Source: an uncultured Granulicella sp.
GTDB lineage: Bacteria > Acidobacteriota > Terriglobia > Terriglobales > Acidobacteriaceae
Assembly: GCA_963693075.2 (NCBI GenBank)
Contig: CAXMMP010000001.1
Coordinates: 1,044,471-1,108,470 of the forward strand
DNA length: 64,000 bases
Direction of reading: 5' to 3'
Under the pieces are notes generated by a model. That model worked only from the letters and a program-made list of their open reading frames with translations. It had not been told where the DNA came from and searched no databases. Every line of letters begins with the position of its first letter. Within the stretch, counting starts at the first letter, position 1. A program made the translations under genes and the position numbers. Shown in pieces: positions 1 to 10,315 of the stretch.

Positions 1-252
1 CGCCTTATTCGCCTGTTCAGTCCGGATAACACCTTCGACCAACGTTATGTCTTTCCCGACGCTTTTCAGGTTCTGCTCTATCTCCTGGTCGAGCGCCTCC
101 TCCAGCCGATGCAACTGGTGCAAATGGTGGAAGTGTTCGACTGTCTGTTCAATGCCAACGGCGATGATGAGGCCGCAGACGATCGTGGCGATGTGGATGA
201 AGAAGTCTTTCCAGGTGTGCGTTGGGCCGTGGGGCGGGTGGACGTCGAGCAT
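1..252 (-). CDS. HPPH-module single-pass membrane protein, paralog P1 (N-terminal 84 codons only; gene runs off the left edge)
   Basis: Manual minus-strand translation from ATG at 250-252 gives MLDVHPPHGPTHTWKDFFIHIATIVCGLIIAVGIEQTVEHFHHLHQLHRLEEALDQEIEQNLKS... with no stop down to position 1. AGGAG lies 6 nt upstream. It is absent from the ORF track because no stop lies in the window. It has the same N-terminal module as the six complete paralogs. Confidence 0.8.
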   Translation of the reverse strand, partial: MLDVHPPHGPTHTWKDFFIHIATIVCGLIIAVGIEQTVEHFHHLHQLHRLEEALDQEIEQNLKSVGKDITLVEGVIRTEQANKA

Positions 253-261
253 GGCGGGCTC

Positions 262-447
262 CTAGGGGGTGGACTCGGGATGCGGGTGGATCGGTTCGAG
301 GGTGTGGGAGGGTTGGGGGGACTGGAGGTACTCGCAGAAGTCGATGATGACGAGGAGAACGAGGGCCGCGATGGCGATGGTAGCGACGCGCATGAAGAAG
401 CCACGCCAAGTATTGGAAGGGTAACGTGAGGGGATGAGTTCGCGAAT
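262..447 (-). pseudogene. Degenerate, truncated eighth copy of the HPPH-module family (start codon position is ATT, all module histidines lost, 61 codons)
   Basis: Manual translation gives IRELIPSRYPSNTWRGFFMRVATIAIAALVLLVIIDFCEYLQSPQPSHTLEPIHPHPESTP*. It aligns without gaps to MLDVHPPHAPTHSWKDFFIHVGTICVGLLIAVALEQAVE (P, P, W, FF, V, T, I and L are shared). Its leader CCGCTACACTG...CCCC..GGAG is homologous to the leader of paralog P5 (3781-3792). An internal ATG at 393 would give a 43-aa TM peptide. Confidence 0.4.
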
Positions 448-533
448 GGCCGGCAGCTCCTTGGGGATGAGAGCAGTGTAGCGGAGGCGATGCCGTAAAC
501 CCGCTCACGCCCCAAAGTACGTGTCATGAACGT

Positions 534-1253
534 CTAGGGCGCGGAGGCGGACAGGGCTTTGTCAACGTAGGTGTCGACCTCGGCGTGGGAGCGGGCGTTG
601 TGGGCGATGGCGTCGCTACATCCGTGCCAGACAGAGGTCCAATAGATGTAGACGTTGATGATGGCGAGATATTTGGCGTAGGCGCGGGCAAGTTCGTCGC
701 GAGCGGGGGCGGCGAGATGGACGGTGGTCCCGGCGTCGAGGCTGACGGCGAAGCGGACTTCGGCGGCGCTGGCTTCCGCTTCGGCGTTGATGGCGTCGTG
801 GTAGCTGGCGAACTCCTCACTCGCATTGGCGTCGCAGCGATCGTAGACCTCGGCCATTGGCTCATCGACAAACGCGGCTTTGCCATTGGCCTTGGCAACA
901 GGCCAGACGGCGCGATCGGGAGAGTGGTCGCCGGCGACCTGGCCACGCAGAGGCAGGCCGATGGTCAAGGTGACGCCGGAAAGCGGTGCGCTCTGCATGG
1001 CGTCGAGGACGCCCTGGGCCCAGCGCCGCTTGGCGAAACTGATCTGCTGATCGCGGTCGAGGACCTGGAGATTGCGCTCGGCCTCATCGTGCATGTTGCG
1101 AACCAGTTCCTGAGACTCACGCTGGTGGTGAATGGCTTCGACGGATTGCTCCAGCCCGACGGCGATGAGGAGGCCGACGCAGATGGTGCCGACGTGGATG
1201 AAGAAGTCTTTCCAGGTGTGGGTCGGGGCGTGGGGTGGGTGGACGTCGAGCAT
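534..1253 (-). CDS. HPPH-module single-pass membrane protein, paralog P2 (class A C-terminal domain)
   Basis: 239-aa ORF starting MLDVHPPHAPTHTWKDFFIHVGTICVGLLIAVGLEQSVEAIHHQ. GGAG lies 7 nt upstream of the ATG. Class A motif: SPDRAVWPVAKANGKAAF...AEVYDRCD. Confidence 0.85.
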   Translation of the reverse strand: MLDVHPPHAPTHTWKDFFIHVGTICVGLLIAVGLEQSVEAIHHQRESQELVRNMHDEAERNLQVLDRDQQISFAKRRWAQGVLDAMQSAPLSGVTLTIGLPLRGQVAGDHSPDRAVWPVAKANGKAAFVDEPMAEVYDRCDANASEEFASYHDAINAEAEASAAEVRFAVSLDAGTTVHLAAPARDELARAYAKYLAIINVYIYWTSVWHGCSDAIAHNARSHAEVDTYVDKALSASAP

Positions 1254-1275
1254 ACAGAATCTCCGAGGTGCGGGA

Positions 1276-2004
1276 TTAGAACTTTGAGGCCTGTTTGTCT
1301 TCTTCGAGCATGAACTGCAACATCTGGTCTACGGAGTGTGCGCCGTGGAGCACGCCGCGGCAAGCGCCAGCCTCGTTGAGCTCGAGCAGGATGGTGATTC
1401 TCAATGCGTTGGAGAGGCTTGCATAGGCCTGTAAGAATTCTTCCCGCTGTGCGAGGTTCAAGGAGAGGGCTTCGGAAGGGGGCAGGCCCTGCCGCGATCG
1501 ATTGATGATGGCAAGGCTTCGTCTCGCACCACTGAGAGCGGTTTCCTGCGCGAGCACGTCGGCCTCATGATCGAGGCGGGCGTAGACCTGGGCTGCGTCT
1601 TTGGGCAATAAGGCGATCGTGCCACTCGACCTCGCAACCGTCCATGCAGTCTGGGAGGGCTGGAACACGTTAATCGCAAAGAGCTGCGGCCGAGGTTGGG
1701 GGAGTGCGCTGGTGTCAATGCGGCCTGCGGAGACGGGTGCCGTATTCAACGCGACGATGGAGGCGTCGACGAATGCGCGCTGCTCGTGGAGGCGCGCCAG
1801 GTTTTCCTGGACGAGATCGAGATTGTGTTCGGCCTCAGCGTGGAGTTGTTCCTCAAGCTCGTGACGCAGATGGCGGTGGTGAATGGCCTCGACCGTCTGC
1901 TCCAGCCCGACGGCGATGAGGAGGCCGACGCAGATGGTGCCGACGTGGATGAAGAAGTCCTTCCAGGTGTGGGTGGGAGCGTGGGGCGGGTGGACGTCGA
2001 GCAT
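1276..2004 (-). CDS. HPPH-module single-pass membrane protein, paralog P3 (class A)
   Basis: The ORF track gives 1276..2052. The conserved MLDV start is the ATG at 2004, with GGAG 6 nt upstream. Sequence begins MLDVHPPHAPTHTWKDFFIHVGTICVGLLIAVGLEQTVEAIHHRH. Class A motif: PSQTAWTVARSSGTIALLPKDAAQVYARLD. Confidence 0.85.
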   Translation of the reverse strand: MLDVHPPHAPTHTWKDFFIHVGTICVGLLIAVGLEQTVEAIHHRHLRHELEEQLHAEAEHNLDLVQENLARLHEQRAFVDASIVALNTAPVSAGRIDTSALPQPRPQLFAINVFQPSQTAWTVARSSGTIALLPKDAAQVYARLDHEADVLAQETALSGARRSLAIINRSRQGLPPSEALSLNLAQREEFLQAYASLSNALRITILLELNEAGACRGVLHGAHSVDQMLQFMLEEDKQASKF

Positions 2005-2093
2005 GGTGGGCTCCGATGTGTGGTTGTCCTTAGAGTATGCGAACCCGCTCATAACGATGAAAGCGTCATGAACGGGGCACCATGGCGAGGTTG

Positions 2094-2888
2094 CTACTTC
2101 TTTTCGGCGGCGTCGCTGGCGGCGTTGGCCGCGGCTTTGAAGGGATTCACACGAGCGTCGGTCTGCTGTTGTGCGGGTTGCAGTCTTTGTACGTCCTGCG
2201 GTGTGCGGGCAACGCCTATGAGCGCATGCAGTTCGGAGACTGTGGGTCCCGGCGTGAAGTCGTTGAAATCAGCGTTGAAGTTTTGGAGCGCGACTCCCGA
2301 GCGGAAGATTGCGGTGAGATAGTCCTGGGTCAGCTTGATCTGCACGTCGATCTGCGCCGGCGTGAGGTGGGAGAGATCGGGATCCAATGAGTTGTATTGA
2401 CCCGCCTTGGAAGATGCGGTAAATAGATCCTCGTCGCTGTCGCCAATTCTGGAGACGTAGTGATAGAGCGCTTCGTCCTCGGTAACCTCATCGCGCGACA
2501 TGAACTCGGTGACGTTGGTGCGCTGGGCCGTCTTCCATGCGGCGTTCTCCATGAGTTCGTGACTCGTTGTGTATCTGAGGACTCCGGGAAGCTTTTCTTC
2601 CGGCGTTCCGGGATGCTGCCGCAGGTAACGGAGGACCAGGAGGTCGTTTTGGGCAAGCGCTGCCTTTTCGTAGAAGAAAGCCGTGTTGGCAGCGAAGTTC
2701 TTGCGGTTCTGCTCGCGTTCGAGGCGCAGGGATTCGCGGATCTCGGAGAGCTGATGGCGGTGGTGGATGTATTCCACGGCCTGCTCCAGACCGACGGCGA
2801 TGAGGAGGCCGACAACGATGGTAGCGATGTGGATGAAGAAATCTTTCCACGAGTGGGTGGGAGCGTGGGGTGGGTGGACGTCGAGCAT
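2094..2888 (-). CDS. HPPH-module single-pass membrane protein, paralog P4 (class B)
   Basis: The 419-aa ORF 2094..3353 runs into the neighbouring gene in another frame. The conserved MLDV start is residue 156, ATG at 2888, with AAGGAA upstream. Sequence begins MLDVHPPHAPTHSWKDFFIHIATIVVGLLIAVGLEQAVEYIHHRH. Class B motif: LRYLRQHPGTPEEKLPGVLRY. Confidence 0.85.
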   Translation of the reverse strand: MLDVHPPHAPTHSWKDFFIHIATIVVGLLIAVGLEQAVEYIHHRHQLSEIRESLRLEREQNRKNFAANTAFFYEKAALAQNDLLVLRYLRQHPGTPEEKLPGVLRYTTSHELMENAAWKTAQRTNVTEFMSRDEVTEDEALYHYVSRIGDSDEDLFTASSKAGQYNSLDPDLSHLTPAQIDVQIKLTQDYLTAIFRSGVALQNFNADFNDFTPGPTVSELHALIGVARTPQDVQRLQPAQQQTDARVNPFKAAANAASDAAEKK

Positions 2889-3030
2889 AGTGAATTCCTT
2901 GAGGTCTGAGAGCAGTTTAGCTGAGAGGTCCTGCGAACTCCCCATCTCAGAATCGAGATAGGGGGCACCCGGCGGAGGCATCCTACGACTGGGATAAAGT
3001 GCGATCAATGGGCCACCCGGAGTTGGGCTC

Positions 3031-3759
3031 TTAGTGTGGGGCACTGGCTTCGTAGCGTTCGAGGTAGGGACGGACCTCAGCCCTTGATCGGACATCGTGC
3101 AGAATTGCGTCCGATGTGGCGGCCCACTTGACGGTGGCGTTGGCGAGTGCGCTGAGAGTTGCTTTGTATTCTGTGAGGGCGTCGACGAGCTTGTCGCGTT
3201 CTGGTAGCGAGATGCGCAGCGTGACGCCGGGCTGGATGCGTTGGTGGATGCGGGCTTCGATTGCGTCCAGGTGCTGACTGACGATGTCGATGCGGTCCTG
3301 CGCCTTGTCACAGTTTTCAGCGTCGAATTCGAGACGGTCGTAGACTTCGGCAAGGTTCTCGGGAAGGAGAGCGATGGTTCCCTTAGCCGTCGCCATCTTC
3401 CAAACAGCGCGGGAGGGCTCGAGGCCTTGGTGGGAGTGGTTAGCAGGCAGGCTTACAGCGATGATGCCATCTTTATTTCCGGCTGCGGGCGTGGCTTGCT
3501 GGAGCTGATCGATGACGGTCTGCGTCCACGAGAGAAAGGTATAGGCGCCGGCGAAGTCGTCTTGAAGTATGGGGAGGTTGCTCTGTGCTTCCGCGTGCAT
3601 GCTTTCGATGAGCTCGGTCCTTTCGTGGCGGTGGACCATCGCTTCGACAGCCTGCTCCAGCGCGACGGCGATGAGCAGGCCGACGCAGATGGTGCCGACA
3701 TGGATGAAGAAGTCTTTCCATGAGTGAGTGGGAGCGTGGGGCGGATGGACGTCGAGCAT
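3031..3759 (-). CDS. HPPH-module single-pass membrane protein, paralog P5 (class A)
   Basis: The ORF track gives 3031..3810. The MLDV ATG is at 3759, with GGAG 6 nt upstream. Sequence begins MLDVHPPHAPTHSWKDFFIHVGTICVGLLIAVALEQAVEAMVHRH. Class A motif: EPSRAVWKMATAKGTIALLPENLAEVYDRLE. Confidence 0.85.
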   Translation of the reverse strand: MLDVHPPHAPTHSWKDFFIHVGTICVGLLIAVALEQAVEAMVHRHERTELIESMHAEAQSNLPILQDDFAGAYTFLSWTQTVIDQLQQATPAAGNKDGIIAVSLPANHSHQGLEPSRAVWKMATAKGTIALLPENLAEVYDRLEFDAENCDKAQDRIDIVSQHLDAIEARIHQRIQPGVTLRISLPERDKLVDALTEYKATLSALANATVKWAATSDAILHDVRSRAEVRPYLERYEASAPH

Positions 3760-3857
3760 GGGTGTCTCCGGGGTTGCGGACAGTGTAGCGGAAGAGTTCT
3801 GCAAATTCATGTCTCAGAAACGAGAGGGGGGTCACCCGTCGACAGTTCGGGTCGCGG

Positions 3858-4688
3858 TTAGTGGTTCGGCTGGTGTGCGCTTGCCTCGGCGGCATCTTCG
3901 GCATCTTTCCGTTGCTGGGCTGCAAGCGCGGCAGATCCAAAGGGTGTGAGCTCTTTTTGGGTGATCGCAATGGCACCCGCGAGCCGTGCCTCGTCTTCCG
4001 CCGAGCGAACCCACCCGGCGCTCTGAAACATCTCTTCTCCGGTGATACCGGCCGGGAGATCGGGGCTTTGCTTCTGCAGGACAAAAAGCCAGATCGCCCA
4101 TTCATAGTTTTCCGTGAAGGAGTTCAGCAGGAACTCCTCCTGCCTCTGTAGCTTCGCAGCAGAGAGATGCGACGGATTGGGATCGATGGCGGCGAAGTCC
4201 GCGGCATTTTGGATCTTGAGCGCCGAAGCGGAGGCGTAATCCTGTGCAAGCTTCAGCGAGTCGTAGAAGGCGGTCAGCGACTCGGCTTCCTTTTGCGGCA
4301 GGAGACCGATGGTCTGCGTCTGTTGAGCGTTGACATAAGCTGTCGTGACCACAAGCTTATACGTAGCCCGCCAGCGTAGTACGCCGGGCAGCTTCTCTTC
4401 GGGCGTGCCGGGATGCTGCTCCAGATATTCAATGACGCGCAGATCGTTGAGAATTAGCTCCCGGTCGTAACGATACCAGGCGACGTTTGTCAGGTAGATG
4501 CGGGCATTCTCTTCATGTTCCTTCTGGAGCGCCTCTCTCAGCTCTTGCCGCTCGTGCCGCCGGTGCATCCATTCGACAGATTGCTCGATGCCCACGGCAA
4601 TGAGGAGGCCGACGCAGATGGTGCCGACGTGGATGAAGAAGTCTTTCCACGAGTGGGTGGCGGCGTGGGGCGGGTGGACGTCGAGCAT
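3858..4688 (-). CDS. HPPH-module single-pass membrane protein, paralog P6 (class B)
   Basis: 276-aa ORF starting MLDVHPPHAATHSWKDFFIHVGTICVGLLIAVGIEQSVEWMHRRH. Class B motif: IEYLEQHPGTPEEKLPGVLRW. AAAGGTG lies upstream of the ATG. Confidence 0.85.
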   Translation of the reverse strand: MLDVHPPHAATHSWKDFFIHVGTICVGLLIAVGIEQSVEWMHRRHERQELREALQKEHEENARIYLTNVAWYRYDRELILNDLRVIEYLEQHPGTPEEKLPGVLRWRATYKLVVTTAYVNAQQTQTIGLLPQKEAESLTAFYDSLKLAQDYASASALKIQNAADFAAIDPNPSHLSAAKLQRQEEFLLNSFTENYEWAIWLFVLQKQSPDLPAGITGEEMFQSAGWVRSAEDEARLAGAIAITQKELTPFGSAALAAQQRKDAEDAAEASAHQPNH

Positions 4689-4714
4689 GGGCGCACCTTT
4701 CTTAGATGGAGCCG

Positions 4715-5470
4715 TTACTGATCAGAGCTTTGGATGGACAGCACCCGCCTGTCTAGGCCTTCAATCTCATCGCCCTGAATGGGATTGCCAGGAATTCCAA
4801 GGAGAGTATCCATATATCGAATGGAGTTGCCGGGACCAAAGTTTGGGTGGCGGCGGACGAACAGGTCTTGTATCAGCGCAACTCTGCCGTGTAGCACCAA
4901 GACTTCGCTCATGGCCTTGATGGCCTCATCGAGGACAGCCGGGTCGGCCTTGCCGAGATCCGGGTAGAGGAACATGATACGTCGCGCCTGCTCGATCGCA
5001 TGCAACTCGTCGTTTTGAATTTCGTAGAGCCGCTCGAGACGACGGTAGGTATCGTCGAAGTTTTGCACTTCCTGGGTGGGCATGTGTTCGATGACGCCGT
5101 CCAACTTTGCGGTCGCCCAATTCGCTTCGGGATAAAACGCGCCGTGCCATCGCCAGTCCATTTTGCCAGGCCAAGTCGATGGGGTGGCACCGGGATGGCT
5201 CCGCAGATACATCAGGACGTCCAGATCCATGCGGTAGACGGGAGCCTGCTGGCGCAGCATGTCTCGTTCGAGGGCAAAGAACTTGATGTTCTTCTCCTCT
5301 TCGAGACGGAGTGCCTCACGGGTTTCTTTGACTTGATGGCGGTGATGAAAGTACTCGACCGTTTGTTCGAGTCCGACAGCGATGAGCAGACCGACGCAGA
5401 TAGTGCCCACATGGATGAAGAAGTCCCTCCAGGTGTGGGTGGGGCTGTGGGGCGGGTGGACGTCGAGCAT
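4715..5470 (-). CDS. HPPH-module single-pass membrane protein, paralog P7 (class B-like)
   Basis: 251-aa ORF starting MLDVHPPHSPTHTWRDFFIHVGTICVGLLIAVGLEQTVEYFHHRH. Class B-like motif: LMYLRSHPGATPSTWPGKMDW. GGAG lies 7 nt upstream. Confidence 0.85.
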   Translation of the reverse strand: MLDVHPPHSPTHTWRDFFIHVGTICVGLLIAVGLEQTVEYFHHRHQVKETREALRLEEEKNIKFFALERDMLRQQAPVYRMDLDVLMYLRSHPGATPSTWPGKMDWRWHGAFYPEANWATAKLDGVIEHMPTQEVQNFDDTYRRLERLYEIQNDELHAIEQARRIMFLYPDLGKADPAVLDEAIKAMSEVLVLHGRVALIQDLFVRRHPNFGPGNSIRYMDTLLGIPGNPIQGDEIEGLDRRVLSIQSSDQ

Positions 5471-5686
5471 AGGTCGTCTCCGATTCGGTGTGAATCAAGA
5501 GTATGCGAACCGGCTCATGACGCAAAATACCGAGCTCGGGTAAGAACCACACCTCGTGAAGCGGGATGTGGGGCTATCAGTTCGAAGTTATGGACGCGCC
5601 CGCAGTTTGAGCAGGCTTTAGCGCTTTCTCATGACTGCGTCGACTTCGAATCTGGCATACGTAGGCTCATTAAATTCTTTTATGCC

Positions 5687-5968
5687 ATGACCCTCGGGCG
5701 TCGCAACGAATCCGCCTTCCGACCGCGGTAAGCCTCGCCCGTGATGATGCTGCGTACCGATGTCTTTACGCTGCTCCTCACAAACTTGAACGACGCCGAG
5801 GCCCTTTATACGGAAATCGACGAAAAGCTCGCCGCCTGGAAGCAGTTGATCCACTCGGTGCGTTTATCTGGACACGGAGAAGACGAAACTCGTTTTGCCG
5901 AGATCTTCGGTACAAAACCCGCGACCGTGCTAGTGCGGCCTGACGGCTTATGCGGCGTTCGTGGGTAA
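5687..5968 (+). pseudogene. Possible C-terminal remnant of an FAD-dependent monooxygenase, with an in-frame stop at 5729-5731
   Basis: The single frame reads ...AFRPR*ASPVMMLRTDVFTLLLTN...KPATVLVRPDGLCGVRG*. The ending resembles the thioredoxin-like C-terminus of aromatic-ring hydroxylases (...LVRPDG...). No N-terminal Rossmann part is present. The match is weak and by eye only. Confidence 0.2.
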
Positions 5969-6151
5969 CGATCGCAGTGTGTCGGAGCTTGCAGGTTACA
6001 TGGCGGCTTGGTTTCCGAGCGCGTCGACCCGAGTTTAGATTTCTTTGTTGCTGAAATCTACCAAGGACAAACCCATCTCGTTGCAACTTGATAACGTGCG
6101 TAGTGACCTATAACGGGGCGCGTTGTCGAAGACGGGTCGTCCTCTGCGCAC

Positions 6152-6598
6152 TTAGAACCTCGCAATGAGCGTTATGCCTCCAACCAATAGCAATGCACCA
6201 ACCGCACGGAAACCATTGATCGGGTGGGTTTGCAAGCGGAACCAGCCAAAGTGATCAATCACGAGTGACGTAATCAGAGCGGCAGTGACGGTGAATCCCA
6301 TGAACGGCCCGGCCCCCACTTTTTGAATCTGGGTGAGGGATGCGTAGACCTGAACTGCTCCTACCAAACCACCCAGCACTGCCCACCAGGGCATCGCTGC
6401 GAGGTCGTCCACAGTTGGGAGCGGGGTCGGCATAACGAAGAACGCCCCAGTGAAGAAGAACGCAATGAGAAAGAACGAAACGGCTGAAGCCAGGTATGGG
6501 TTGACGAGGGAGTTTTTGAGTTGTGCATTCATGGCGCCGCCGCAAGCCTGCAGAGCGCCGCCTACGATGATGAAGGGTATGATCCAGCCGATTTTCAT
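6152..6598 (-). CDS. DMT-superfamily small transporter (YdcZ/DUF606-like)
   Basis: 148 aa with about five TM segments. The sequence is typical of the YdcZ family: MKIGWIIPFIIVGGALQACGGAMNAQL...VIDHFGWF...GALLLVGGITLI. Confidence 0.75.
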   Translation of the reverse strand: MKIGWIIPFIIVGGALQACGGAMNAQLKNSLVNPYLASAVSFFLIAFFFTGAFFVMPTPLPTVDDLAAMPWWAVLGGLVGAVQVYASLTQIQKVGAGPFMGFTVTAALITSLVIDHFGWFRLQTHPINGFRAVGALLLVGGITLIARF

Positions 6599-6627
6599 AG
6601 GTCACCTTTTGGAGTCGAATCGAGTTA

Positions 6628-7902
6628 TCAGTTGCCAAACATTGCATGCGCGGCCAGCAGGCCAGCAACAGAGGCGAGCATCGCGACAGGCATCGCGAGC
6701 GTTCCCGCTTTGAGGAAGTCCCAGGCACTGACGTCGAGCTTTTCTTTGCGCAGAGCAAGCAGCCACAAGATGGTTGCCAGCGATCCGGTGACGGAGAGAT
6801 TCGGCCCCAAGTCCACCCCCACAAGCACGGCGTGCGCCAGCAGTCCCTGCAGATGTGTAGCCTGCACCGTGGCACCAGCCACTAGCCCTAAGGGCAAATT
6901 GTTGAAGATGTTGTTCGCAACACCTACGCTCAAGGCGACGATGGTGGTCCCGAAAGAAGGAGCCAGAGACTTGCACCACTCGAGAGCCATTTGCGTATAT
7001 CGCAAGAGCCCCAGGCTCTCCGTAGCGTCGACGAGGATAAATAAGCCCGCCACTAGAAAGATCGTCGGCCAGCTTAGAGCCTTGGCAAGCTTTACGGGGC
7101 TGGCCCTTTCTTTGATGGAAATGACTGCAGTAATGAGGAGAGCTGCCAGGCATGTCGGAAGGCCAAGGTCTTTCTTGAATGCCGAAGCTGTCAGGAGAAC
7201 GACCACAACGAACGCCAGCCCCCATAGAACCATTTTGCCAGCTGGCTTGAGTTCACAGTCTTCGACCTCTTCTTCGATTCGCTCGCTCAGGTCCTTGCGG
7301 AAATAAAGTCGAAGGACAAGGAATGTAGCCACGATGGAGCACAATGAAGGAACACCAAACGAAGCTAACCATTGCCCTAGCGGCGGCATGCCCTGGTGGA
7401 AGACAACCAAATTAGCGGGGTTGGAGATTGGAAGGACGAATGACGCCGCGTTCGCGATCATCGCGCACGCAAATAGATACGGCATCGGCTGAACTTTAGC
7501 CTTGCGCACGGCGGACAGAACCGCGGGCGTCAACACCACGGCGGTTGCGTCGTTGGACATAAAGATGGTCGTAAGCGTTCCGACCCCGTAGATGAGTAGA
7601 AAGAGCCGAGTGCATTCACCTCTCGCTCCACGGGCTGACTTGGACGCGACCCAGTCGAAGACCCCATACTCACTACCGAGTTCCGACAGCAGCATCATGC
7701 CGATCAGGAAAAGGTAAACGTCTGAGCCTTCCGTCACCGCTTTCCCAGCGAGCCGAAGGGGGATCAGTCGAAGGACGATGAGAAGCAGCGCACCTGAACC
7801 AACCCACCAAACTTCGGGGATATTCCGGGGCCGCACCAGCATGAGCAAGATGCTGAGGGCGACGATGGCGACGATGAGCATGTGGCTGAGAATGGGAGCC
7901 AT
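6628..7902 (-). CDS. ArsB/NhaD-superfamily (SLC13-like) anion permease
   Basis: Polytopic membrane protein whose sequence is typical of ArsB/NhaD permeases. The ORF track starts at 7968, but that start overlaps the upstream gene. The ATG at 7902 (MAPILSHMLIVAIVAL...) lies 2 nt after the upstream stop. Confidence 0.75.
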   Translation of the reverse strand: MAPILSHMLIVAIVALSILLMLVRPRNIPEVWWVGSGALLLIVLRLIPLRLAGKAVTEGSDVYLFLIGMMLLSELGSEYGVFDWVASKSARGARGECTRLFLLIYGVGTLTTIFMSNDATAVVLTPAVLSAVRKAKVQPMPYLFACAMIANAASFVLPISNPANLVVFHQGMPPLGQWLASFGVPSLCSIVATFLVLRLYFRKDLSERIEEEVEDCELKPAGKMVLWGLAFVVVVLLTASAFKKDLGLPTCLAALLITAVISIKERASPVKLAKALSWPTIFLVAGLFILVDATESLGLLRYTQMALEWCKSLAPSFGTTIVALSVGVANNIFNNLPLGLVAGATVQATHLQGLLAHAVLVGVDLGPNLSVTGSLATILWLLALRKEKLDVSAWDFLKAGTLAMPVAMLASVAGLLAAHAMFGN

Positions 7903-7904
7903 AT

Positions 7905-9074
7905 CTACCACTTCCGCCCATTCTTGTTGGGGCCTAACTGGGTTCCCAGCAGACCACGTTCTTCCCAAGCTTCGAGAGCGTTATCCAGGTCCGTGTGTTT
8001 CCGATTGCGTGGCGAGTAAGAGTTGCGACCGACTACGATTCGGACCGTGTCCGTCGCCTTGCGTTGCGCTGTGTCCTCTGCCGTTACGGTGAGCTCGTAC
8101 CTTCCGTCAGGTAATGTCCAAGGTTGCTGGCTCTCCCACGTAGTTCCTGCGGAACTCTGTGCCAGTGTCAATTTCTTTCCATCGACCTCTGCGGTAACTG
8201 AAAGCACTGGCGAGTCTCCCCAGACACCGGCTCGTACGCGCAATGCCCCCTCCACAATGCCTTCCATATTGGCTTCGGTAAGAAGCCGTTCATCGACTGG
8301 TGAGGTTACGACAACGACAGGTCCTTCCTGCGGTTCGAGGAAATGCCAAGAGACGGAGCCCTGGTCAAACGTCACCAGACTGTAACCGGCGTTACCCTCC
8401 TCGATCTGGCCCGTCGAACGAGTCGCGGCATAGAGGGTGGTGCCATCATTGCTCACCTCGTTGTAATGAGTGTGTCCCATATCCACAAGCCTAACGTCGA
8501 ATCGGTGTAGCAACTCGGCAAGGCGGCCCGCTCCTTCTTTTAGTTCGCTGGGATAGCAGTGCATCAGGACAACGGACGTCTGTTCGCTTTTCTCTGCCGT
8601 CTGAAGCTCGCCTTCTAGCCAAGCGAACTGCTCATCCCCTAGCAGGAATGCGTCGGGACGGGGTTCCGCGAAGACGTTGAGACGGATGAACCGCAAGGTT
8701 CCAACCTGAAAACTGTCATTGAGCGAATCTGCTATCGCTTCGCGGAAGTTGGCGAAGCTCTTTTCATGAACGTCGTGATCGCCCACGATGCCACACCAGG
8801 GCACTTTCAGCTCGTCCACGCAATCACGCACCGCCGAGTAGGCGCTACGGCTACCGTCATCGGCGATGTCCCCGGGGAGGTACACGAAATTCAAGCCGCT
8901 CGTGAACGTCCGGTTGATGTGCCGCACGATGCGGAGTAGATCTTGAAAGTTTTGTTGTGAACGATCCATCATGTGGAGATCGCCGATGTGGATGTAAGCG
9001 ACCATTCCATCGTGACCAACGGGCAGGGGCGAGAAGTTATGGCGAGAGATGCGTATGGAATTCGAATTGGACAT
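7905..9074 (-). CDS. Metallophosphoesterase (calcineurin-like) with a C-terminal Ig-like beta domain
   Basis: The ORF track gives 7905..9533. The real start is the ATG at 9074 (MSNSNSIRIS...), with GGAGG upstream, 2 nt after the MFS stop. Motifs present: GDLHM, LPGDIADDG, GDHDVH, GHTHYN. Confidence 0.85.
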   Translation of the reverse strand: MSNSNSIRISRHNFSPLPVGHDGMVAYIHIGDLHMMDRSQQNFQDLLRIVRHINRTFTSGLNFVYLPGDIADDGSRSAYSAVRDCVDELKVPWCGIVGDHDVHEKSFANFREAIADSLNDSFQVGTLRFIRLNVFAEPRPDAFLLGDEQFAWLEGELQTAEKSEQTSVVLMHCYPSELKEGAGRLAELLHRFDVRLVDMGHTHYNEVSNDGTTLYAATRSTGQIEEGNAGYSLVTFDQGSVSWHFLEPQEGPVVVVTSPVDERLLTEANMEGIVEGALRVRAGVWGDSPVLSVTAEVDGKKLTLAQSSAGTTWESQQPWTLPDGRYELTVTAEDTAQRKATDTVRIVVGRNSYSPRNRKHTDLDNALEAWEERGLLGTQLGPNKNGRKW

Positions 9075-9076
9075 CG

Positions 9077-10315
9077 TTAGGCCTCCTGAGCCTGGGGAGT
9101 TGTGGATACTTTGGTTTCGGGAACACCGAAGAGAAGCAGAGCGAATGCTGCGAGAGCGAGAGCGCCCAAGACCCAAAAGGATACGTTGGCTCCGCGATGT
9201 TCCATGAGCGAACCGCCAACGGTCGTGCTTAAGGCTGCGCCTAGAGCCACGGCGGTTGCGACTGCACCTTGTGTCAGGTTGAAGCGACCGGTATCTCGTG
9301 TGCGATCCGCAACCACGAGGATAGAAACCACGCCGAAGATAGCATTGGCTACGCCGTCCAAGAGCTGGACCGCGATGAGCGCACCAACTCCATGCACAAT
9401 CGTGTAGAGCAATGCGCGTAGCGGTAGGACGCCGAAACCGACGAGCAGAAGCGGCTTTCGTCCGCAAGTATTTGCGGCGCGCCCGATCCATGCGGCGGAG
9501 AGCATGATGACCGCTTGCGTGACGGCGATGCAACCGGACATGAACGGTGCGGCCGCCCTCGCAGAACCATGGGCTAGTAATTCACCGAGTTGTGGAAGCA
9601 TTGCCGCATTCGCCAGATGAAAGAGAAAGCAACACACCAGGAAGACGAGTAGCACTTTGTCGTGGAGTAAAGAAAGCACAACCTCTTTTCCACTCCCTGC
9701 AATATCTTCGTTTTCGCAGCCACCTCTCGCTAACTCCGGATCGATATCTTCTCTACGAATCAAGAGAGCGGAAACAATCGTCGGGATGACAAGGACAGCC
9801 GCCGCGAGGAAGATCGCTCGATTCCCGAAGAAGTGACTGGTGACAGCAATCAGTCCGGCAGCGAAAAGATTGCCAGCCGAGTTGAACCCCTGATTTCTGC
9901 CGAACTGCCGATCGAAGGCTGCCACACCGACAATCCCCATGGTGATCGCCGCGAGAGTCGGTCCAAGGAAAGGCCCGGTTCCACCGATTAGTATCTGCGA
10001 AGCATAGACAATCGATGGTGACGTGGACACGGTAAGCAGCAGAGCCCCCGTCCCAAGGACCAAAGCCGCAGAAATCAGGAGAAGTCGCTTGCGAAGCACG
10101 TTATCAACAATCCATCCGGCAGGGGTCTGCAGGACGACGGTGACGATTCCAGCAACCGTGAGTGCATGACCGACCGCCCCGGCCTTCCAGCCACTTGCTG
10201 CCAGATAGGCGGCAACAAAGGGACCGAGGCCAGTTTGCACGTCCGCAAGAAAAAAGTTAGTCGCTTCCATTGCGTGTGTGCTTTGAGCCTTCGTCTTGTT
10301 GGTGGAGTGAGTCAT
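9077..10315 (-). CDS. MFS transporter
   Basis: 412 aa with 12 predicted TM-like hydrophobic stretches and MFS-type loop motifs. Confidence 0.85.
   Translation of the reverse strand: MTHSTNKTKAQSTHAMEATNFFLADVQTGLGPFVAAYLAASGWKAGAVGHALTVAGIVTVVLQTPAGWIVDNVLRKRLLLISAALVLGTGALLLTVSTSPSIVYASQILIGGTGPFLGPTLAAITMGIVGVAAFDRQFGRNQGFNSAGNLFAAGLIAVTSHFFGNRAIFLAAAVLVIPTIVSALLIRREDIDPELARGGCENEDIAGSGKEVVLSLLHDKVLLVFLVCCFLFHLANAAMLPQLGELLAHGSARAAAPFMSGCIAVTQAVIMLSAAWIGRAANTCGRKPLLLVGFGVLPLRALLYTIVHGVGALIAVQLLDGVANAIFGVVSILVVADRTRDTGRFNLTQGAVATAVALGAALSTTVGGSLMEHRGANVSFWVLGALALAAFALLLFGVPETKVSTTPQAQEA

Follow-up and report, generated by a model that had tools for sequence, protein, structure and literature searches.

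The first 5,470 nucleotides (nt) of a 64,000-nt stretch of DNA from an uncultured Granulicella sp. of the Acidobacteriaceae (assembly GCA_963693075.2, contig CAXMMP010000001.1, positions 1,044,471 to 1,108,470; the whole stretch is called the window here) carry a run of minus-strand membrane-protein genes that begin with nearly the same sequence, the module, and then diverge strongly. The question raised by this locus is whether the module is kept alike by recombination between the copies, as a first-pass annotation made from the sequence had proposed, or by selection within an old family of paralogs. Our results favor the second answer. We put at roughly 55% the probability of the explanation as a whole, namely that this is an old, co-oriented array of paralogs for bitopic (single-span) membrane proteins, in which the module is kept mainly by selection, with some gene conversion, and would serve as an assembly site in the membrane.

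On the minus strand, a 24-mer at the start of the module, ATGCTCGACGTCCACCCGCCCCAC, is found seven times when up to one mismatch is allowed (window positions 252, 1253, 2004, 2888, 3759, 4688 and 5470) and is absent from shuffled sequence. These occurrences mark the starts of genes P1 to P7 (Table 1), whose products share 29 invariant residues among their first 62. Nucleotide identity is 73-92% in the module (135 nt) and 33-50% across the rest of the genes, confirming the divergence that had been described at the DNA level. The differences that had been counted by hand, 4 in 96 nt between P2 and P3 and 12 in 96 nt between P2 and P7, were exact. The first-pass annotation had listed eight module genes. 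Seven share the 24-nt start, and the eighth, taken at the time for a degenerate copy, belongs instead to a conserved type of small gene that is described below.

Two classes of C-terminal domain (C-domain) had also been recognized, and profile hidden Markov models (HMMs) of the two subfamilies agree with that assignment: P2, P3 and P5 belong to subfamily A and P4, P6 and P7 to subfamily B, so that transcription passes through them in the order B, B, A, B, A, A. Although the classes are real, they are not unrelated. An hhalign comparison of A with B, using the C-domains alone, gave a probability of 93% (E = 2.5e-7, 111 columns), indicating that the two classes are diverged versions of one domain.

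To compare conservation of the module within and between genomes, we scored how often identical residues are encoded by the same codon. Within the window this fraction was 0.73 for the module and 0.42 for the C-domains, with 0.39-0.48 expected from codon usage. For modules of the window against those of other genomes the fraction was 0.65, as it was between unrelated loci, and inside other arrays it was 0.69-0.80. Because the value between genomes lies close to that within the window, we conclude that most of the synonymous conservation is family-wide and does not reflect local homogenization. Synonymous divergence calculated by the Nei-Gojobori method was 0.29-2.1 in the module, while in the other parts of the genes it was ≥1 or saturated, a saturation that weakens this particular comparison. 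The modules of the window differ from one another by 5-16 synonymous codon differences per 29-40 comparable codons, and thus whatever homogenization has occurred was not recent.

The family-wide conservation of synonymous sites is attributable to a strong preference for codons ending in C. Third positions are C in 68% of module codons compared with 49% in the C-domain, and alanine is encoded by GCC in ~90% of cases in the module versus 54% in the C-domain. The first 105 nt are rich in C and poor in G (0.42 and 0.20, respectively), and their mean minimum free energy of folding is -20.3 kcal/mol, compared with -25 to -30 kcal/mol for later segments. This weak folding agrees with selection for an open translation-initiation region, which is well known and is relevant here since every gene of the probable operon has its own Shine-Dalgarno sequence, as had been noted before, with GGAG or AGGA located 6-10 nt before the ATG. 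The similarity of the module DNA would then arise chiefly from constraint on the peptide, to which family-wide, C-ending and G-poor 5′ codons that keep the start weakly folded would contribute.

In addition to the family-wide conservation, we observed a smaller signal that is specific to this lineage. Five of the seven modules, from both subfamilies (P2, P3, P5, P6 and P7), read HVGTICV, which is four nucleotide changes away from the family consensus HIATIV(V/I/L). Elsewhere this variant is present in 2 of 160 members from other loci and in 5 of 238 database homologs. Orthologs of P3 (~80% identity) have the consensus, as does P0123 (62%), one of the two closest relatives of P6; the other, P0122 (68%), has HVGTICV. 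All six complete paralogs find their closest module, by nucleotide identity, within the window array, but only one of them finds its closest C-domain there. Identical tracts of 62 nt (P2 and P3), 50 nt (P2 and P6) and 44 nt (P3 and P6) connect three of the genes. Tracts of these lengths were found in 0.08%, 0.5% and 1.9%, respectively, of 13,279 inter-locus pairs with dissimilar C-domains and in 2.5%, 4.6% and 11% of 280 intra-locus pairs. Finally, a 21-nt motif, ATGAGCSGGTTCGCATACTCT, has two matches in the window where none is expected (Table 1). It lies outside coding constraint, is absent from 157 related loci, and may either stem from duplication of a promoter or be left over from a conversion tract. 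The motif contains a -10-like sequence, CATACT.

Taken together, the HVGTICV variant, the identical tracts and the motif in the 5′ untranslated region (UTR) support some gene conversion, and in this respect the earlier idea of concerted evolution is partly supported; it does not account for most of the conservation of the module DNA, which is family-wide (0.65 versus 0.73). Occasional short-tract conversion between neighboring copies would add lineage-specific homogenization to a module that is conserved throughout the family.

The same observations could be taken as traces of an active cassette system with a constant anchor and variable domains, in which direct repeats of 100 nt drive concerted evolution and unequal crossing-over and re-sort two unrelated C-terminal types. 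The identical tracts linking P2, P3 and P6, the spread of HVGTICV across both classes, the 5′-UTR motif common to P3 and P7, and a copy number that varies between 1 and 11 at a single syntenic site (the GSP_synth site, below) all fit such a system. Nevertheless, we consider it improbable. As described above, codon identity of the module between genomes is near the within-array level, any homogenization is old, and the C-domains are homologous to each other. In addition, P3 and P6 have near-full-length orthologs elsewhere at 60-82% identity, and five of the six complete paralogs have their nearest C-domain in another genome. Arrays are syntenic across genera, and no recombinase or invertase gene, nor any toxin or immunity gene, is adjacent to the window array. 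The spacing between modules, which had been given as 0.75-0.85 kb, is in fact 751-1001 nt.

Rhs/CDI-type toxin cassettes provide a known example of a constant 5′ module followed by divergent 3′ parts in tandem genes, with short direct repeats able to recombine. In contrast, the C-terminal parts in the window are mutually homologous, have stable orthologs across genera and lack toxin or immunity domains, and most array genes have no small open reading frame (ORF) between them, whereas polymorphic toxin systems pair unrelated C-terminal toxin domains with cognate immunity genes.

Syntenic arrays of the family, such as those of loci L001 and L002, occupy several sites. One is located between a GSP_synth-like gene and serA (19 and 15 loci) and a second between a Cupin_5 gene and a xanthine permease gene (8 loci); the window array is sited elsewhere. 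Given the orthologs in other genomes and the syntenic arrays, we conclude that this is an old paralog family evolving by birth and death rather than the recombining cassette family that had been suggested. Tandem duplication would have produced the copies, birth and death would vary their number between genomes, and the C-terminal bundles would have split into several subfamilies, A and B included. The range of 1 to 11 copies fits slow birth and death by unequal crossing-over. A metagenome scan found no close relative, the best match being 61% identical.

Table 1. Coordinates of the array genes, the small ORF and the shared 21-nt motif in the window.
Feature	Position	Strand	Size and subfamily	Description and evidence
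P1	1-252	minus	84 codons (5′ part)	Cut by window edge; module and start of stalk helix; HIATIVC module type; exact 24-mer at 229-252, HMM match
Small module-like ORF	262-447	minus	~61 aa	One transmembrane helix, no C-terminal domain; …IPSRYPSNTWRGFFMRVATIAIAALVLLVII…; module HMM E = 5e-4
P2	534-1253	minus	239 aa, A	24-mer, alignment, subfamily HMM
P3	1276-2004	minus	242 aa, A	24-mer, homologs at 100% coverage, structure model
21-nt motif, copy 1	2032-2052	minus	21 nt	ATGAGCGGGTTCGCATACTCT; 28-48 nt upstream of P3 start
P4	2094-2888	minus	264 aa, B	HIATIVV module type; 24-mer, alignment, HMM
P5	3031-3759	minus	242 aa, A	24-mer, alignment, HMM
P6	3858-4688	minus	276 aa, B	24-mer, homologs, structure model, HMM
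P7	4715-5470	minus	251 aa, B	First array gene in the direction of transcription; 24-mer, alignment, HMM
21-nt motif, copy 2	5498-5518	minus	21 nt	ATGAGCCGGTTCGCATACTCT; 28-48 nt upstream of P7 start

AlphaFold2 models built from family alignments had predicted local distance difference test scores (pLDDT) of 94.6 for P3 and 94.9 for P6. In both, residues 1-13 are non-helical, a single unbroken helix that includes the transmembrane (TM) segment and a stalk extends from residue 14 to about residue 90, and an all-helical bundle follows. A second hydrophobic segment was not found in any of 205 members, whose C-domains are acidic (median isoelectric point 5.3) and contain 0-1 Cys. The protein would therefore be bitopic by prediction, with a short His-rich N-terminal peptide (MLDVHPPHxxxHTW.D), a single TM helix (FFIH-IATIvvGLLIAxGL) that passes unbroken into a polar stalk (EQ.VE..HH.H…E…N), and a C-terminal all-alpha bundle of ~180 aa.

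No family in Pfam, NCBIfam, PADLOC or PHROG matches the window proteins. The best Pfam match was Ly49, at 16 bits against a cut-off of 31.5, and all NCBIfam matches were far below their cut-offs. Searches of PDB sequences with the family profile and the module profile returned nothing significant (best module match CydH, E = 0.5), and a Foldseek comparison of both models with PDB, and of the class A model with BFVD, yielded no match at E ≤ 0.001, with TM-scores no higher than 0.39. The module, which the first-pass annotation could not assign to a named domain, thus has no named relative in any of these collections, and we found no literature on this protein family.

An alignment of 458 distinct sequences revealed that nearly every position from 1 to 39 of the module is at least 90% conserved. 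The conserved residues include M1, L2, D3, V4, H5, P6, P7 and H8, then T13 and W14 with H12 at 87%; D16, F17, I19, H20, T23 and I24 (F18 81%, I21 89%, A22 87%); and G27, L28, I30, A31, L34, E35, Q36, V38, E39 and H42 (L29 83%, G33 87%). After the module, conservation continues as a stripe with a spacing of 3-4 residues (Q46, L50, L54, E57, N61, N68). An ordinary signal anchor does not have a TM segment conserved on all of its faces, and this pattern suggests that the helix is packed on all sides. Furthermore, because the first ~40 residues are near-invariant in thousands of proteins, every paralog must act alike in the membrane.

Module-like peptides without a C-terminal domain are also present within the arrays. 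The small ORF of the window (Table 1) has no ATG, GTG or TTG start; an ATT at 445-447, 9 nt after AAGGAG, is the sole plausible candidate start. Its peptide, IPSR(Y/H)P(S/A)NTWRGFF(M/F)RVATIA…, is found again in locus L016 (1551-1760), likewise without ATG, GTG or TTG. Since the peptide is kept between the two loci despite what are visibly many synonymous differences, which we did not count, it appears to be translated and under selection. An ATG-initiated ORF in another frame (78-527) overlaps the small ORF. A second type of mini-protein, HLITICIGLIIAFGLQQIV…RRRR…PPP, occurs in eight loci (L001, L002, L008, L013, L018, L032, L058 and L070). The persistence of mini-proteins within the arrays would fit their co-assembly with the full-length proteins.

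Judging from the sequence pattern, we infer that the module helix is packed against neighbors, which could be further copies of it, its paralogs, the module-only mini-proteins or a single shared partner. The His and Asp residues clustered on one side of the membrane and the Glu and His residues on the other would also have a function, which might be to bind a metal or heme or to relay protons. The metal, heme or proton sensing put forward in the first-pass annotation stays conjectural. As the best supported of the possible functions, we suggest tentatively that the module may be a shared membrane assembly module, perhaps binding a cofactor, that bears diversified helical domains. As such it would provide an assembly site, with or without a cofactor or metal, for the paralogs, the mini-proteins or a common membrane partner. 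Candidate ligands or relay residues would be the ring of His and Asp at one face of the membrane and that of Glu and His at the opposite face, and the diversified helical domains would provide differing specificities. A more specific version, in which paralogs and mini-proteins co-assemble into hetero-oligomeric TM bundles whose rings (H5, H8, H12, D16 and H20 on one side; E35, E39 and H42 on the other) bind metal or heme or relay protons, seems to us rather doubtful.

Single-TM subunits that carry a histidine for a cofactor are known from cytochrome b559 (PsbE/PsbF) and cytochrome bd (CydH). Like them, the window proteins have a single TM helix with an invariant His a few residues inside the membrane boundary (H20, FFIH-IATI), a pattern that would allow a cofactor to be bridged between helices. 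Unlike them, the window proteins have an additional helical domain of 180 aa and are encoded in arrays, and there is no sequence relationship (PF00283 and PF00284 gave no match at E ≤ 1).

Several points weigh against our explanation, in particular its functional part. Oligomerization and cofactor binding are read from the pattern of conservation. Clustering of the neighbors at 74 loci recovered housekeeping synteny and no conserved partner gene beside the arrays. The charges flanking the TM helix do not agree on an orientation: among the 205 members, Lys plus Arg average 1.04 before the helix and 1.57 after it, whereas the net charge favors N-in. With regard to the conservation of the DNA, the excess of identical tracts within loci could come in part from shared codon usage of a genome. 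The mRNA-structure explanation for the C-ending bias is plausible, short of proof, and the bias is not explained by residue conservation, as third-position C is 0.53 at conserved and 0.62 at variable columns of the C-domain. Translational accuracy, under which codon bias should track residue conservation, was rejected for the same reason: conserved C-domain columns are not richer in C-ending codons.

The histidines at the N-terminus raise another possibility, that the proteins are one-component membrane sensors in an N-out/C-in orientation. In such a scheme the 13-residue His-rich peptide would sense pH or metal in the acidic periplasm, the cytoplasmic bundle would serve as output, and individual paralogs would be matched to partners that differ. 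This would agree with the invariance of H5, H8 and H20 and the 87% conservation of H12, with the slight enrichment of Lys and Arg on the C side of the helix, with the RRRR directly after the TM segment of the second type of mini-protein, which implies C-in, and with the restriction of the family to bacteria of acidic peat, tundra and glacier soils. On the other hand, the net charge difference favors N-in, the small ORF of the window type has its arginines on the N side, and there is no recognizable output, kinase or DNA-binding domain. Four-helix-bundle periplasmic sensor domains (4HB_MCP, TorS-like) lie between two TM helices and connect to a signaling domain, whereas all 205 members have a single TM segment; there is no Pfam match, and the Foldseek matches to McpS and TorS reached E ~0.7 with TM-scores below 0.3, which is no structural match to a sensor domain. 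We therefore think a sensor role unlikely.

The architecture also resembles that of type IV pilin and pseudopilin clusters (GspG-K, FimU-PilVWXE), in which tandem paralogs have a conserved N-terminal helix extending into a variable head. If the window proteins were pilin-like or other surface-assembly subunits, the conserved hydrophobic helix would pack into the core of a filament or lattice, and tandem genes would encode the variable "lollipop" heads in the manner of minor pilins. The long N-terminal helix followed by a globular head, the conservation over the whole TM helix beyond one face, the tandem paralogs, and the label "pseudopilin PulG" given to a few members by JGI are in keeping with this idea. 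The resemblance is, however, one of architecture only. The proteins lack a class III signal peptide, the G/A-F…E5 prepilin peptidase motif and an N_methyl Pfam match; the N-terminus reads MLDVHPPH…, and the Glu stands at the end of the hydrophobic helix and not at its start. Neither a secretion ATPase, a platform protein nor a peptidase is among the conserved neighbors (GSP_synth-like, SerA, aminotransferase, Cupin_5, xanthine permease), genes for assembly machinery are missing from the surroundings, and the all-alpha head does not match a pilin fold. A pilin-like function is thus very unlikely.

P3 and P6 have 2185 and 1629 homologs, respectively; the matches listed mostly cover 85-100% of the query, and all are labeled "hypothetical" save for a few spurious labels. 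A 62-residue profile of the module, searched against 1.84 billion cluster representatives, matched 2486 proteins at E ≤ 1e-3 and 1237 at E ≤ 1e-10. Because these represent clusters at 50% identity, the counts refer to clusters, of which the family has ~2,500. All matches are 200-300 aa long or fragments, and almost all carry the module right at the N-terminus, indicating one architecture rather than a promiscuous module. In a survey of one genome per GTDB species, carriers were mostly Acidobacteriaceae (Granulicella, Bryocella, Edaphobacter and Terracidiphilus, including cultured strains), and 1-3 copies were found in Oxalobacteraceae, Rhodanobacteraceae, Steroidobacterales and Rhizomicrobium from similar habitats. 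At least two copies are present at 40 of 75 loci, at least four at 19 and at least eight at 6, with a maximum of 18 and a median intergenic gap across family loci of 36 nt. The largest array (L052, 5508-19276) comprises 18 consecutive family genes in ~14 kb of an uncultured Acidobacteriaceae metagenome-assembled genome (MAG).

Lineage-specific tandem expansions of bitopic proteins of the DUF type are a further parallel, the present family being likewise unnamed, expanded in one bacterial family and tandemly duplicated, with variable copy number at syntenic sites. It differs in that ~40 N-terminal residues, including the whole TM segment, are unusually conserved, with family-wide constraint at synonymous sites. 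On present evidence, the family is new as a family but is not a new kind of genetic system.

Some loci have other genes in or near the array. In the array of L002, from an Acidobacteriota MAG, a thioredoxin gene (3943-4374) and a multicopper-oxidase gene on the opposite strand (8776-9942) are inserted among the family genes, and a DsbA/Thioredoxin_4 protein is encoded within ~3 kb of the arrays in 5 loci. This proximity may hint at a periplasmic redox or metal context. Single or double copies in Oxalobacteraceae and Steroidobacterales (L010, L024 and L044) stand beside an integrase fragment and HTH/MqsA-like, PIN and Peptidase_S74 genes, which suggests that the proteobacterial copies were acquired by horizontal transfer into variable regions.

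With tandem, diversified paralogs, and with neighbors such as those of the proteobacterial copies, one might also think of a repertoire of membrane proteins for immunity or defense, for example an array of orphan immunity genes or abortive-infection effectors. This is highly improbable given that the proteins have no PADLOC or PHROG matches and no toxin genes nearby, that syntenic arrays stand beside housekeeping genes, and that orthologs are kept across genera. Moreover, phage records contain no member of the family and plasmids almost none, the single plasmid match being an unannotated fragment on pACPOL4 of Acidisarcina polymorpha (99177-99290; L157, 5001-5114). This fragment covers module residues 1-38 only, is flanked by an SDR oxidoreductase gene and a hypothetical gene, and is probably a pseudogene remnant.

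Within the window, the intergenic gaps between complete copies are 22-142 nt, as had been reported, and the array is probably co-transcribed. A promoter and terminator scan found no terminator-like site on the coding strand within the array; its sole promoter-like site overlaps the P7 start codon, and on the whole the scan was uninformative. The array may run on past the window edge. A scan of positions 1-7000 detected no pseudogene remnants, and Rfam had no match in positions 1-8000. The annotated longer form of P3, starting at 2052, is probably a mis-call. Upstream of the array, on the same strand, are genes for a YdcZ-type exporter, a CitMHS/ArsB-like transporter, a metallophosphoesterase and an MFS protein. 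The 680-bp gap between the YdcZ-type exporter gene and P7 (5471-6151) has no ORF with a Pfam match, no Rfam match and no convincing promoter, and is presumably the regulatory region of the array. We also observed a plus-strand GC skew of +0.18 to +0.26 over positions 1-4000, where the sense strand is C-rich, which falls to ~0 past 5.5 kb. C-ending codons are heavily used throughout the family genes and most of all in the first 45 codons.

For studies of paralogous genes, this locus offers a case in which nucleotide identity can mimic concerted evolution when it is mostly the product of peptide constraint and codon bias in the start region. Acidobacteriaceae count among the most abundant bacteria in soil, and a large share of their gene content lacks an assigned function. 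If the co-assembly that we regard as doubtful were true, it would give these bacteria combinatorial membrane complexes with diversified heads, adapted to acidic, metal-rich soils. The size of the family, its arrays of up to 18 copies, a confidently predicted fold without a solved relative, and an N-terminus and TM helix conserved well beyond what an ordinary membrane anchor would require make it a well-defined and tractable target, with carriers in culture that include Granulicella sp. L46, Bryocella elongata DSM 22489 and Granulicella rosea DSM 18704.

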